Assembly (NCBI RefSeq): GCF_006345805.1
Contig: NW_021834280.1
Location: forward strand, 1 to 49,768
Reading direction: 5' to 3'
Length of the DNA stretch: 49,768 bases
Source: Octopus sinensis
Lineage: Eukaryota
Positions within the stretch are counted from its first letter, which is position 1. Each line of letters begins with the position of its first letter. The notes under the pieces were generated by a model. It was not told the DNA's origin. It made no database searches and worked only from the letters and a program-made list of their open reading frames with translations. A program made the translations under genes and the position numbers. Positions 12,187-49,050 of the stretch are shown here, piece after piece.

Positions 12187-12322
12187 GATAAAAATGGTAA
12201 GATAACAAAAGAAAGAAAGAGACCTCAATATTATGTAAATAGAGGAATTTATCTGTAATTGTAATATGTGACAATTATTCGGTAGCCAAGATAAAACTCC
12301 GAGTTTCGGACGCCGAGGTGCA
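12187..12322 (-). mobile_element. (TA)n-adjacent short fragment carrying a possible 3' half of a hammerhead motif
   Basis: Minus strand reads ggcgtcc-GAAA-CTCGGAG-TT; no CUGANGA half is present. Confidence 0.3.
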
Positions 12323-12689
12323 CATATACGTGTGTGTGTCGTGTATATGTGTACAAAATATATACATATACATACCTGTGCACACACACAAACATACACA
12401 CACACACAAACAAAAACACACGCATATACACACACTGATGTATATATACGCACAAAGATGTATAGTTTACTTTTTCAAATTTGAAAACACGTGCGCGTTT
12501 ATGTGTGTGCATGTGCATGCGTGTTTGTGTGTGTATGTGTGCGTGCGTGCATGTGCATGAGGGTGTGTGCACGTGTGTGCATGCGTGTGTGTGTGTGTGT
12601 AAATATATATAGACAGACACACCTATATATAATGCATATTCATAGACATAGTATGTATATTTTTGCAAGACAGGCCCAGACAGTTGAGC

Positions 12690-13050
12690 AGGTAGATAGA
12701 AGGAGAGATCGAAAGGGAGAGAGAGAGTAAGAAAGATAGAAAGAGAGAGTAAAGAAGTCTGAGGTAGAGAGAGAGAGAGAAGGAGAGAGAGACAGAGGGA
12801 GAGAGAGAGAGAGACAGACAGACAGACAGATGCAGCGTGTGACAGACAGACATATAAACAAAGACTGTTTTTATTTTTGTAAAGAGGACGAGTCGGAAAG
12901 AGCGCGCTAAAGATAGAGAGACTGTATGTAGGGAAGAGAGACAAAGAGAAGGAGAGATAGAAAGATCGAAAGAGAGAGAGAAACAGAGAAACAGAGAGAG
13001 AGATGGGGGAAGAGAAAATGGAGACAGAGATAGAGAGTGAGTGAGAAAGA
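12690..13050. repeat. Degenerate (GA)n purine tract
   Basis: Direct inspection. Confidence 0.9.
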
Positions 13051-15127
13051 AAATGTGTTTGTGCAGGTGCGCGCGTGTGTATGTAATTAGAGTTGATTGC
13101 ATTTCTCGTGGAAGGCATCATTCATCGAAGAAAGAACAAACGATAGACAATGGTATCGACCGTAGCATATTACAGGTACACGTGCTGTCTGCACATACAA
13201 ACTCTGTATTAAATACAAACATACATATATATATATATACATACATATATATATGCATATATATGTATATATATATATATGCACACACATAAATACATCC
13301 ATCTATCTATCTGTCTATCAATCTATCTATATACACAGACATGTATATGCACGTACATAACTATTGAAAGAGAGAAAGAAGAGGGGAGAGAAAGAGAGTG
13401 AGTGTGTGTGTGTGTGTGTGTGTGTGTGTGTGTGTGTGCGAGAGGGTGTGAGAGAGAGAGAGAAAGAAAGAGACTGTGCCAATAAAAGCGATGACTCAGT
13501 CACTACCTACTCGGAGTTTTTTTAGGTTTACAACCGTTCACATACACTAACAGTTGATATTCGTGAACGTGTGCACATTGCGTACACATTCACCTACCTT
13601 TATATATATATCTACCTAACCATCTGCATTCATACATGCATACACATGTACAAACACGTAAACACATAAACATACATATTTATATAGATACATATGCATA
13701 AATATATATATATACATATATATATATGTATATATATATATATATATATATATATACATAGATATATACATGTATTCATACATATAGATATCAATATATA
13801 TATATATATATATATATATACATAGATAGATATATACATATATTCATACATATATATATCAATAGCAATATATATATATTATATATATATATATATATAT
13901 ATATGCCTGCATACATGCGTACATACATAGGCGCGTACACACATAAATACAGACTGTATACATACATGCATACATCCATCCATATATATATGTGTAAATA
14001 TATATATATATATATGTGTGCATGTATGTATGTATGTATGTATGTATGTATGTATGTATGTATATATATATGTGTGTGTGTGTGTATGTATGTATGTATG
14101 CATGCATGTATATATAGCCGGCACACCGTGTTGTTTGTCACTTTCAGGAAACACTCATGTAAGTGTGAACAACAAGTGGTATATATATTGATATATATAA
14201 AGTGGATTTCTAAACCATCATCGATGAAGACATACTTAGCAACTGTTGCTCAGGCAAAAAAAGTAAGTACGCATACCTGGAGGGCCATATCTATGCCTAT
14301 ATATACATACATACATACATATATATATATATATATATATATATATATATATATATATACATACATATATATATATATATACATATATATACATACATAC
14401 ATATATATATATATATACATACATACATACATATATATATATATACATATATACACATGCATACATGCATCTATTGTCTCTGTTGTTGCATTTCGATTCT
14501 ATACTCTCTTTTAGTTATTCATTCTTTCATTGCAATCATTCATTTCATCTGTCGTTCGTTCTTTCTTTCTTTCATTCACGCTTTCTTTCTTTCTCTCTTT
14601 TCTCTCTATTTATTTGTTTGTTTGTTTATTTGTTTGTGAGTGTGCATCTGTCTGTCTTTTCTATTCGTCTGTCGCGACACCTGTTTGTTCTGTCAATCCG
14701 TTTCCTTGGTCCGCAGCTTTGTTACATCCACTTCTATGTTTATATGTTTATATATAATATTTATACATAACTATATATGTGAATGTGTGTGTGTGTGTGT
14801 GAGGATATTATTGTATATAATAATATCAGTGGCTTAGCATACGTAAAACAACATAAAGATGAAATTATCATTTAATAATTAAAGGTACAACAGGCAGTAT
14901 AAACATATTGAAATAGCAGTTAAAAGCGCTCAAATTACAAGTTTTCACTTAAACCCAAAGTTGAAGGCGTGCCTAAGATTCCACACCAATGATGAAAATA
15001 CTTTGCATCTTTTAAGTTAAAACATGTGTTTGTGTCAGTTTGACTGCTATTTCAGCAGGTTGGTACTGCCTGTAGAACTCTTAATATATACATATATATA
15101 TATATATATATATATATATATATATAT

Positions 15128-15171
15128 AGGGAGAGTTTACGAAAAAAACGAAAGGCGAAGACAGGTGGTGT
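15128..15171 (-). mobile_element. 3' tip of the TA-embedded hammerhead family 1 element
   Basis: gggagagtttacgaaaaaaacgaaaggcgaagacaggtggtg matches 24665-24708 and the reverse complement of 37620-37661; flanked by (TA)n on both sides. Confidence 0.75.
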
Positions 15172-15224
15172 ATATATATATATATATATATATATAATAT
15201 ATATATGCTTCCACGACTGCTTCA

Positions 15225-15796
15225 CGATCGCTGTTGGTGTGTTTACATCCTTAGCTGCTCAGGAAAGAAATGACTGAGAGAACAGGTATCAAACTTTAAA
15301 AAGGATTTCTCGGGTCGATTTGCTCGACTAAACCCTTCAAGGCAGTGCCCCAGCATGGTGGCTGACCAATGACTTAAACAGGTAATAGATAAAAGATTAT
15401 ATATATATATACTTTGATTTGTTTCAGTCATTTTGCTGCGGCCATTTTGGAGCACCGCCTTCAAGGATTCTAGTCGAACAAATCAACCTCAGGACTTACT
15501 TTTTTTAAGCCTAGCAGTTATTCTATCATCAGTCTTCTTAGCGCGAACTGCTAAGTTACGGGGACGTAAACACACAAACACCGGTTGTCAAGTGGTGATG
15601 GTGGGGGAAAAATGCACATATAGATACCCTCCCCTACATATATATATATATATACGGTGGGCTTCTTTCAGTTTCCGTGTACCGAATCCATTCACAAGGC
15701 TTTAGTCGGGCCGAGGCTATAGTAGAAGACACTTGCCGAAGGTGCCACGCAGTGGGACTGAACCAGAAACCATGTGATTACCACACAGCCACGCCA
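15225..15796. mobile_element. Inverted SINE A pair: + tail fragment (about 15225-15395) and - near-complete copy (about 15411-15796)
   Basis: Family A tail occurs on both strands, tail to tail. Confidence 0.85.
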
Positions 15797-15922
15797 ATAT
15801 ATATATATATTATGCAATACATGTCTACAAGTATGAATGTGCACGCAAATATATATTGTTTACGGGGTTTTACTTGTCGCGGTTGAAGCCATGCTAGGAC
15901 AGAGTGGAAGTTCCATGTAATA

Positions 15923-47370: not shown

Positions 47371-47844
47371 TATAAGAATTATATAACATGAAGATGGATG
47401 ATATTAGGTTTTATAATAGATCACCATGTTTGTTTCTCTCCTGCCCACCAGCATAAAATCGCTGAGGTTACATCCATATACCATTACACAAGCTCTTTTT
47501 ATTACAATTATTACAATATATTGGAATATTTTTTCAGCAACAGCCCTGCGTGGGCGCTTCGTCGGGTGGAATGTGATTAATCATTTCCACACGGTGAAGG
47601 GCCTACATACTGCTTTTAACAGAGAGTAAATGATTTGTAGTTGTTTATGCCTTTAATGCCTTCTTCCGAGCCAACAACGCCTTCGTCCTTTTTTGCCTCC
47701 CGCTGAAAAACAAGAATCCGATACATTAGCTATTCTATTACTTGTGTCCATTCATCTTATCATAAACTCTTCTTTAGATTAATTGTTACCGAAGCTGATC
47801 TCCTGTATTGACTCTCCTTCTTCCTCTCCATCGACATAAGTAAA

Positions 47845-47985
47845 CTGTTCGGCCAAAAAAGAAGATCCGATAGATTAAGTCCCAGGCTTTAAAAATAAAA
47901 TACATTGGAATTGATTCATTCGACAAAAAATTCTTCAAAGCGGCGCCCCAGCATGGCCGCAGTCGGAAACAAGTAAAAAGGGAAA
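47845..47985 (+). mobile_element. SINE A tail fragment
   Basis: gttcggccaaaa..ccgataga..ccccagcatggccgcagtc..gaaacaagtaaaa. Confidence 0.75.
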
Positions 47986-47989
47986 GAAT

Positions 47990-48500
47990 ATGTCACGTGA
48001 TCACGTGATCGACTGGACTAACGGATGTTGTTATATATCACTGATCACAATGCGATTTACGTTGTTTCAGCTTTTGAATAATGCCAACCCGCTGGGTAGA
48101 CAGGTGCAGACCGATACTCCTTGTGATCGGAAGGTTATTTTGTTGCGGGGTTACCCGAACACAGCCGAGTGGACTGGAGCATGTAAATGTTGTGCCCAAG
48201 AACATAATGCGACGTCCGGTACAGGAGTCCGAACTCAGGATCTAGCGATAGTGAGTGTGACCCCAAGGCCACGTACCTGCACCAAGAAATTTACTCTCCG
48301 AGGCAGAATTTCGGGTGAGGTTGTTTGTGTAAAGTCAGACCAGCAATCGCCCATGCATACCAGACTCTACACTCCCCAAAATGGAACAACGTGAAATAAA
48401 GTGTCTTGCCCCAGAACACAACACACAGCCCGCGCCGGGAATCGAACTCATTACCTCATGATTGTAGGCCTGACTCTCTAACCACTGAGCCATGCACCTC
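47990..48500 (-). mobile_element. Two tRNA-derived SINEs (D-like tail about 47990-48290; B-like head about 48300-48500)
   Basis: Minus head gaggtgcatggctcagtggttagag (A box), gagttcgattccc (B box) and gggcaagacactttatttcacgttg (CORE-like). Confidence 0.75.
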
Positions 48501-48650
48501 ACACATCTCTCTCTCTCTCTCTCTCTCTATATATATATATATATATATATATATATACACATATATATACATATGTGTGTGTGTATATATGTATGTGTGT
48601 GTGTGTGTGTGTGTGTGTGTGTGTATGTGTGTGTATGTGTATGTATATAT

Positions 48651-48753
48651 GTAAAAGTCTCTCACTTCCCGAGCGTTAAACTAATACATCTGTTTCTTGT
48701 TTACACATCCGTCTTGGTCTTTTGTTTTGTTTGTTTTTTGTAAATTCCAACTA
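48651..48753 (+). mobile_element. Hammerhead family 1 fragment beginning at the predicted cleavage triplet
   Basis: gtaaaagtct..cttcccgagcgttaaactaatacatctgttt..gtcttttgtttt..gtaaattc matches 37564-37660. Confidence 0.65.
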
Positions 48754-48895
48754 CACACACACACAACACTCACACACACATACACACAAACGGAAAGGTA
48801 GACAGACAATTAGACACCGGTTCTTCTAGCTGGGCACTTCAGAGCCACTAAGGATGTTAATTTTTCTTCAAATATATATATATATATATATATAT

Positions 48896-49050
48896 GAGTA
48901 GTTGAATGAATTATCTTATTATGGATAATTCAGTTAACCGATACCTGGGTAGCAAATTCCCGTCAGAAAAACACATATGCAGCCTTCGAAACATATGTCG
49001 AGAATAAAGGAATTTTGTTAATTCGTCGTTCAACTCTATTCTTTCATTTA
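48896..49050 (+). mobile_element. Hammerhead family 2 element, internally deleted
   Basis: gaattatctt..gataattcagttaaccgatacct matches about 36747-36787; retains ccttc-GAAA-CATATG-TC (48983-48999) but not CUGANGA; in (TA)n. Confidence 0.65.

Follow-up and report, generated by a model that had tools for sequence, protein, structure and literature searches.

What are the short non-coding inserts that lie in or next to (TA)n tracts in the octopus genome, and how did they get there? The question is raised by a stretch of 49,768 nt from Octopus sinensis (bases 1-49768 of contig NW_021834280.1, assembly GCF_006345805.1; hereafter the window), where a reading of the sequence alone had proposed that non-autonomous elements carrying hammerhead ribozymes, of the type known from Penelope-like elements (PLEs), form a dense population associated with (TA)n. 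We searched the genome (2.72 Gb in 13,516 contigs) for relatives of these inserts, and this core proposal held: they fall into four superfamilies that are unrelated to one another, candidate copies exceed 1,000 in each of these, and the ends of the copies are strongly enriched in TA. Corrections are needed, since most of the copies in the window are, judged from their motifs, ribozyme-dead, and in the family called F1 below none of the 48 copies aligned has a canonical core. We have good confidence that the inserts are truncated, deleted or solo-repeat non-coding elements of the Penelope-type minimal hammerhead kind, likely copied into pre-existing (TA)n by the reverse transcriptase (RT) and GIY-YIG endonuclease of PLEs elsewhere in the genome.

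Families of inserts and their TA flanks

The pieces in the window were delimited by BLAST of natural genomic copies onto it, and by direct reading of the sites. Twelve pieces were obtained, which belong to four sequence-unrelated superfamilies (F1/F1b, F2/F2b, F3 and F4) and all abut (TA)n or (TA/TG)n (Table 1). Every insert named in the sequence-only reading was recovered, at most ~40 nt from where it had been placed. Its Family 1 and the corresponding subfamily came out again as F1 and F1b. The two members of its Family 2 (36731 and 48896) are indeed related, but they represent two distinct families, F2 and F2b, and the possible half motif it had seen at about 12300 is a 5′-truncated copy of a fourth family, F4. 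The absence of similarity between families outside the core was also borne out: with blastn (word size 7, E≤0.1) the superfamilies share only their TA tails, the few other matches being short and weak. Within superfamilies, F1 and F1b are homologous (80% over the ribozyme block), as are F2 and F2b (~70% over 176 nt).

In the genome, first-look candidates numbered 3,927 for F1, 3,871 for F1b, 1,440 for F2, 1,861 for F2b, 1,025 for F3 and 1,266 for F4. All these numbers are lower bounds, 40 candidates being scored per family search, and the F1 and F1b sets may overlap. The family samples used below are the best-scoring 29 to 40 copies per query, with a few rows duplicated through overlapping loci (L008/L009, L010/L011 and L160/L161). 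F1 copies have one common 3′ end (..GURAAYUCUCCC) and dispersed 5′ ends: in 29 copies selected by their last 70 nt, the starts were spread over more than 200 nt. Longer F1 forms of ~410-430 nt exist, with alternative 5′ parts. The short forms of F2, F2b and F4 (~330-365 nt) consist of a ~77-nt head joined to the hammerhead part.

F3 is very young, as 32 of its 58 matches outside the window are 100% identical over at least 147 nt. It is built of two inverted arms, each stopping either after the hammerhead segment or after an extra ~90-nt 'tail', and both ends meet TA. In a long form, the ~1.3 kb that precede the hammerhead arm contain no open reading frame (ORF) of 120 aa or more other than simple repeat, and F3 is therefore considered non-autonomous. 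Head-to-head pairs of inverted arms were also seen for F2, F2b and F4. For F1 and F1b, we observed truncation and TA flanks only, and no inverted two-arm structure specific to F1. A pseudo-long terminal repeat (pLTR) with hammerhead, an inverted 5′-truncated arm and a tail on one side only make up the anatomy drawn for PLEs in PMC8557442 (Fig. 2 legend). The insertion signature of PLEs, which adds a microsatellite as target to this anatomy, is present here.

The genome is rich in microsatellites (347 rows of Tandem Repeats Finder, TRF, over the ~50 kb of the window), and ~3.9% of the window bases lie in (TA)≥5 runs, with 77 segments of (TA)≥6. A background was taken from the far flanks of the same loci, where (TA)3 was found in 7.6% of the intervals counted (5,123/67,678). 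Within 15 nt past the 3′ end, (TA)3 was present in 26/32 copies of F1, 10/17 of F1b, 20/25 of F2, 8/9 of F2b, 19/20 of the F3 tail and 24/26 of F4, that is, at 59 to 95% of the sampled ends (p from 7×10−8 to 4×10−25). The 20 nt preceding the variable 5′ ends of F1 contained (TA)3 in 14 of 29 copies, compared to a background of 9.2% (p = 6.5×10−8). The enrichment test for (TA)n flanks that the sequence-only reading called for is thus strongly positive, at the 3′ ends of all families and at the 5′ ends of F1. In addition, unrelated families share single TA tracts, twice in the window (24644-25137 and 36694-37700) and again at locus L137, where the TA tract that contains a PLE also has F1, F3 and F1b-like copies. 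The TA found 5′ of truncated F1 copies and the nesting of unrelated families in one tract suggest that insertion took place into existing tracts. We also observed F2b-type heads directly after the TA tract that trails an F1 or F2 copy (L029, ~1690-1760, and the 3′ flank of L080).

Table 1. Pieces of the hammerhead families in the window; the last row gives a motif from PLE copies elsewhere in the genome, with positions in the respective locus
Feature	Position	Strand	Extent and flanks	Hammerhead region
F4 copy	12187-12322	(-)	5′-truncated within loop II; 3′ part kept, terminating at the (TA)n tract 12145-12185	GAAA-CUCGGAG-UU kept
F1 3′-terminal stub, ~43 nt	15129-15171 (BLAST match 15115-15172)	(-)	between two (TA)n tracts	missing
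F1 copy, 3′ 175 nt	24648-24822	(-)	terminates at (TA)n 24644-24661	hammerhead-like, CUGUGGA-A-GAGC GUAG GCUC GAAA CG UA
F1b copy, nearly full length	24849-25093	(+)	3′ end GGGAUUUAC, then (TA)n	minimal hammerhead block, ~24916-24950, UUGAAGA-A-GAGC UUU GCUC GAAA CG UU; C3 changed to U
F1 3′-terminal stub	25458-25516	(-)	within a long (TA)n tract	missing
F2 short form	36689-37053	(+)	77-nt head and pLTR-like part; (TA)n on both sides	~36885-36966, CUGAAGA, long helix II, GAAA, CACGUU
F1b-like divergent copy	37020-37156	(-)	70-73% identity; 5′ end (AAACCC..) coincides with the predicted cleavage site	missing
F1 copy	37507-37675	(+)	(TA)n on both sides	~37535-37570, CUGUAGA-A-GAGC GUAG GUUG GAAA CG UA; helix II broken too
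F3 pLTR-like arm	46611-46791	(-)	terminates at (TA)n 46587-46621	complete, 46713-46755 (-)
F3 second arm, opposite in orientation to the first	46759-46884	(+)	~90-nt 'tail' segment; end ..CCCUAAUAUUUAUU, then (TA)n	
F1 internal fragment	48651-48734	(+)	~80% identity; between (TG/TA)n and (CA)n; starts at most 3 nt from the predicted cleavage site	missing
F2b copy	48873-49052	(+)	(TA)n on both sides	GAAA CAUAUG UC kept at 48988-48999; a ~92-nt internal deletion took CUGAUGA and the 5′ arm of helix II
PLE 3′ hammerhead-like motif	L140 ~5640-5720; L137 ~5945-5990			

Another short repeat of the window, at 17690-17990 on the (-) strand, is an abundant tRNA-derived short interspersed nuclear element (SINE), with dozens of matches in 785 kb of unrelated loci. 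A match at 17811-17975, first taken as a canonical hammerhead locus, turned out to be this unrelated SINE, contained in the reference slice.

Hammerhead motifs in the families and in the window

At the level of families, the elements of a type I hammerhead are readily recognised. CUGANGA stands directly 5′ of helix II in most sampled copies of F2, F2b, F3 and F4. In all families there is a GAAA box, an A15.1-U16.1 pair and a UH site followed by the 3′ strand of helix I, which is 4-5 bp long, and the G10.1-C11.1 pair is found in F1, F1b, F2, F2b and F4. F1b reads GUUU CUGAAGA A GAGC UUU GCUC GAAA CG UU AAAC, with CUGAAGA intact in 24 of 31 rows; after GAAA, F1 and F1b have CG and then UA or UU. 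F2 has CUGAAGA, a helix II of 11 bp with a large loop, GAAA, CACGUG and UA, and F2b has CUGAUGA, a helix II of 12 bp, GAAA, CAUAUG and UC. The F3 motif, CUGAAGA UUGUC GAUCAG GACAA GAAA CAAUUG UA, is identical in 29 of 29 loci. In F4, CUGAAGA is followed by a long imperfect helix II, GAAA, CUCGGAG and UU, full copies elsewhere in the genome reading ..GGAUAA CUGAAGA [long helix II] GAAA CUCGGAG UU UUAUC... These putative ribozymes have a helix III reduced to a palindrome of 2 to 7 nt, which they cannot close on their own, and would therefore act as dimers.

For a more stringent count we used a strict descriptor, requiring a helix I of at least 3 bp, a helix II of at least 4 bp, and pairing of 15.2 with 16.2. 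For F2, 29 loci gave 34 motifs, of which 23 were identical, and for F3, 29 loci gave 29 motifs, all identical; with a 1-nt bulge allowed, 27 motifs were found in 29 F4 loci. Applied to the 3 kb flanking the sampled loci (L002-L236), the descriptor also detected several further hammerhead motifs, unrelated to these, and the genome therefore holds many more such families than the four of the window.

In the window itself the situation is quite different from the sequence-only reading, according to which all inserts had the order CUGANGA, stem II, GAAA, palindrome, UH. Only one copy has the complete motif, and the others are truncated, deleted or mutated. A loose pattern (CTGANGA..GAAA..TH) gave 5 matches for 4.76 expected, and at least 5 in 46 of 100 shuffles, which is chance level. 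The strict descriptor gave exactly one match, at 46713-46755 (-) in the F3 arm (CCAC CUGAAGA UUGUC GAUCAG GACAA GAAA CAAUUG UA GUGG), compared to a mean of 0.01 in order-2 Markov simulations, where 1 in 100 had any match. Cleavage of this motif is predicted after GUA, at 46718/46717 (-). Besides F3, the CUGANGA box is present in the F2 copy, which is otherwise broken: it has CACGUU where most sampled copies have CACGUG, and this G16.2 to U change breaks helix III. The ribozyme region is missing from three of the F1 pieces (15115, 25458 and 48651) and from the F1b-like copy at 37020-37156, and the F1 copies that retain it read CUGUAGA or CUGUGGA. By this count of lesions, most window copies are ribozyme-dead.

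Is the fold under selection? In 76 aligned blocks of F1 and F1b, 93.5% of the cells were paired, versus 19 to 48% in controls where the alignment was slid. Between the two families, one helix I pair is compensated (C-G in 32 copies, G-C in 25), which counts as a single event. Between F2 and F2b, N7, H17, helix II and the palindrome (CACGUG versus CAUAUG) all differ while pairing is kept, as seen by eye and not counted; the F3 copies, being identical, are uninformative on covariation. Together these comparisons point, if thinly, to selection on the fold.

F1 deserves a separate description, as its core differs from that of F1b by one letter, at position 6. The 48 aligned boxes were 35 CUGUAGA, 6 CUGUGGA, 3 CUGUUGA, 1 CUGUCGA and 3 others. 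Among the sampled copies, variation between F1 subfamilies inside the block is restricted to N7 (all four bases), H17 (A or U) and loop II. Outside the block, by eye, the subfamilies differ by ~12-15% and can barely be aligned with F1b. Of the whole element, it is the ribozyme block that has changed least from one F1 subfamily to another and from F1 to F1b. A permuted hammerhead, for which PMC10085705 provided a lead, was looked for by eye in the inspected F1 copies and discarded, no CUGANGA being present on either strand. Two other features of these families were observed. A second block, CCUGAGCGUyuRCUAAUAC, is conserved in both F1 and F1b, 25 nt from the ribozyme on its 3′ side (e.g. 37583-37601 and 24966-24985). 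The last ~12 nt of F1 (..GUAAACUCUCCC) roughly match the last ~10 nt of F1b (..GGGGAUUUAC) when the latter are read as reverse complement, the elements being otherwise collinear (24662-24680 compared to 25045-25061 in the window).

Autonomous Penelope-like elements and the origin of the copies

As the sequence-only reading had stated, the window contains no ORF for a Penelope RT or a GIY-YIG endonuclease: tblastn with a genomic PLE protein gave a best E value of 5.1. The window copies are derivatives, not autonomous PLEs. Elsewhere in the genome, a GIY-YIG search returned at least 5,029 first-look candidates, and 149 of the 150 scored matched. Among those scored, nine rows had open PLE frames of 762 to 883 aa. 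The 781-aa frame of L137 scored 29.1 bits with Pfam RVT_1, just below the cut-off of 29.6, and 27.8 bits with GIY-YIG, above the cut-off of 22.6. The genomic frames combine an RT with a C-terminal GIY-YIG domain and have a CX4CxxC linker (CGRPNCGIC). Because of this C-terminal position of the endonuclease, they are not Naiads, a PLE group discussed below.

Three of these PLE copies (L137, L138 and L140) terminate in ..UUUUUUACAAA, followed by (TA)n, and L137 lies within a TA tract. Their 3′ untranslated region (UTR) has a hammerhead-like motif with a UUGAUAA core (U3-A8), GGUUC..GAACC GAAA CAUG UA, some 70 nt ahead of the terminal (TA)n. Another feature of the 3′ UTR of L137 is a series of four to five degenerate repeats at 5230-5600, each with a TGATGACGTC (CRE-like) motif, which may constitute an internal promoter region. 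As for the families of the window, long F2 elements hold decayed frames with RT-like and GIY-YIG-like stretches, which suggests that F2 is of PLE parentage.

The copies probably arose as follows. The PLE endonuclease would nick (TA)n, its CX4CxxC linker being of the type proposed to steer microsatellite bias, and reverse transcription would then start at the 3′ end of the element RNA, with the nicked TA strand as primer (target-primed reverse transcription). Incomplete copying would leave 5′-truncated stubs, and template switching would generate inverted arms. The hammerheads would cleave only as dimers, in multimeric or paired transcripts, and in this way trim the RNA template. Cleavage is probably dispensable for insertion itself, since F1, among the most abundant of the families sampled, carries a core that is expected to be impaired.

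A number of observations weigh against this origin, or against the hammerhead assignment. No family could be linked to a particular autonomous PLE, as the 3′ ends have no convincing similarity, and the F2 ORF remnants match no Pfam family and resemble a PLE protein weakly (pairwise E 0.05-0.07), though collinearly. At its gathering threshold, Rfam detected no hammerhead in the window and none in 10 loci taken as holding intact family members; a scan of 46690-46780 at E≤10 gave none either. A permissive Rfam scan of the window had no hammerhead among its best 150 matches, nearly all of which were microsatellite look-alikes of microRNA models. The model RF00163 does detect another hammerhead family in this genome, with 8 of 74 scored places above the cut-off. 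Three cores depart from the canonical one: F3 pairs U10.1 with A11.1 where G-C is usual, F4 fits only if one C is bulged out at the base of helix II, and F1 has U at position 6 in 48 of 48 aligned copies, hence no canonical box. Substitutions of A6 cripple hammerhead cleavage. Adjacency to microsatellites is not exclusive to the hammerhead families, as the tRNA-derived SINE also adjoins one, (CA)n(AT)n. Finally, TA is rarer at the 5′ than at the 3′ flanks, so that the element itself may have templated some of the 3′ TA, which would then not belong to the target.

The last point leads to the alternative that the TA tracts are made by the elements: a (UA)n 3′ tail would be brought in and expand later, seeding a microsatellite. 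This would fit the passage of each family's 3′ end straight into TA, the higher frequency of TA at the 3′ than the 5′ end of F1, and a genome so rich in microsatellites. A 3′ tail cannot explain, however, the TA that precedes F1 copies at varied truncation points, and several unrelated families were found inside one tract, while most of the 77 (TA)≥6 segments of the window have no insert. A target bias of PLEs has also been published (PMC8557442). Tail seeding is consequently an unlikely origin for the tracts, even if it is compatible with targeting: a templated (UA)n tail annealing to the nicked target would give both patterns, which leaves room for the higher 3′ rate within insertion into pre-existing TA.

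Should the inserts rather be regarded as retrozymes in the strict sense, in which hammerhead-excised RNAs of unit length, circularised by tRNA ligase, serve as templates for reverse transcription? Metazoan repeats with type I hammerheads behave in this manner (PMC7229834), and PLE pLTRs are the source of animal retrozymes according to a 2026 preprint (10.64898/2026.07.22.740005). Two copies of the window (the 37156 end and 48651), as well as 1 of 29 F1 copies (L201), begin 0-3 nt from the predicted cut. We had considered such ends as a sign of cutting in vivo and gave this up, since a single one of the 29 sampled F1 copies fits, the 5′ ends of F1 being dispersed; the window cases are attributed to coincidence. 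Head-to-tail tandem arrays of these families are absent from the window and from the sampled loci, the copies being single, 5′-truncated or in inverted pairs. No permuted junctions were seen, and at L123 (9352-9600), four public contig runs, of uncertain RNA or DNA origin, gave coverage, with no joints and no common start or end at the cut site. We give the strict retrozyme scheme little credence, and retain copying by the PLE machinery.

That F1 is an ordinary SINE moved by a long interspersed nuclear element (LINE), its hammerhead-like block being a fossil or having another role (promoter, protein-binding hairpin) unrelated to PLEs, seems very improbable: the lack of A6, the fixed 3′ end with 5′ truncation (also a LINE/SINE pattern), the lack of an F1-specific two-arm structure and the negative Rfam result on the single F1 locus scanned (L029) would all agree with it, but the homologous block of F1b is a textbook PLE minimal hammerhead, the block is the best-kept part across F1 subfamilies and F1b, with one compensated pair in helix I, and F1 has the same association with (TA)n as PLE copies. 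Because U6 is found in every aligned F1 copy, N7 and H17 vary and the block is the best conserved part, it is conceivable, if rather doubtful, that the block is still under selection, either as a natural A6U hammerhead, working in dimeric form or helped by a protein, or as a fold re-used as a handle for template recognition by the PLE RT.

Relation to known systems

PLE minimal hammerheads have been in print since 2014 and (TA)n targeting since 2021, and non-autonomous hammerhead repeats have already been traced to PLE pLTRs (2020, and the 2026 preprint). Since the inserts are of this known kind, their novelty drops, as a proviso of the sequence-only reading had foreseen. The one feature for which we found no earlier description is that U6 is fixed in the F1 core, together with the pattern of variation between F1 subfamilies. 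In the giant-squid genome, 235 Rfam hammerhead_1 loci were counted (PMC6962438). The literature on Penelope hammerheads, in the portions covered, yielded no description of these families in octopus; supplements may list cephalopod hammerhead families.

The families explain a considerable group of short repeats that lack annotation in this animal genome, so rich in microsatellites, and all four superfamilies are missed by Rfam-based annotation. They also designate (TA)n tracts as shared insertion sites where PLE-derived lineages pile up, which bears on the interplay of microsatellites and retroelements. With young, near-identical F3 copies and open-frame PLEs side by side, this genome is a practical one in which to study the purpose of the hammerheads and the choice of microsatellites by GIY-YIG endonucleases, although neither question was first raised by this window.

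Metazoan non-LTR retrozymes (PMC7229834; 10.64898/2026.07.22.740005) have in common with our families that they are non-autonomous, AT-rich, 150-450 nt long, equipped with type I hammerheads and proposed to derive from PLEs. They form head-to-tail arrays with circular RNAs (PMC7229834), whereas the octopus copies are dispersed monomers, stubs and inverted pairs.

Minimal hammerheads of metazoan PLEs were described by Cervera and de la Pena (2014, PMC4209133). They are of type I, and their helix III, which consists of no more than 15.2-16.2 or a short palindromic loop, can form only in a dimer. The type I order, this minimal helix III, the short helix I (4-5 bp) and the often long helix II are shared with our families. 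In both cases, genomes contain copies by the thousand, most of them single and truncated and some in close inverted pairs. The host is from a different animal group than those of that study. The U6 of F1 is not among the variants in the sections of that paper covered here, and the U10.1-A11.1 pair of F3 also differs. The U3-A8 core variant described there for Schistosoma PLEs matches the motif in the 3′ UTR of the autonomous octopus PLEs.

A parallel for the insertion sites is provided by Craig et al. (2021, PMC8557442). Almost all PLEs of the Hydra clade lie in (TA)n, always with hammerheads, and Naiads, which in cephalopods are ancient remnants only, also favour (TA)n. The authors argue from Naiads that hammerhead cleavage is dispensable for insertion, and tentatively ascribe the (TA)n bias to the linker of the endonuclease. 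In contrast to these PLEs, the window has non-coding derivatives only. [quoted passage not shown]

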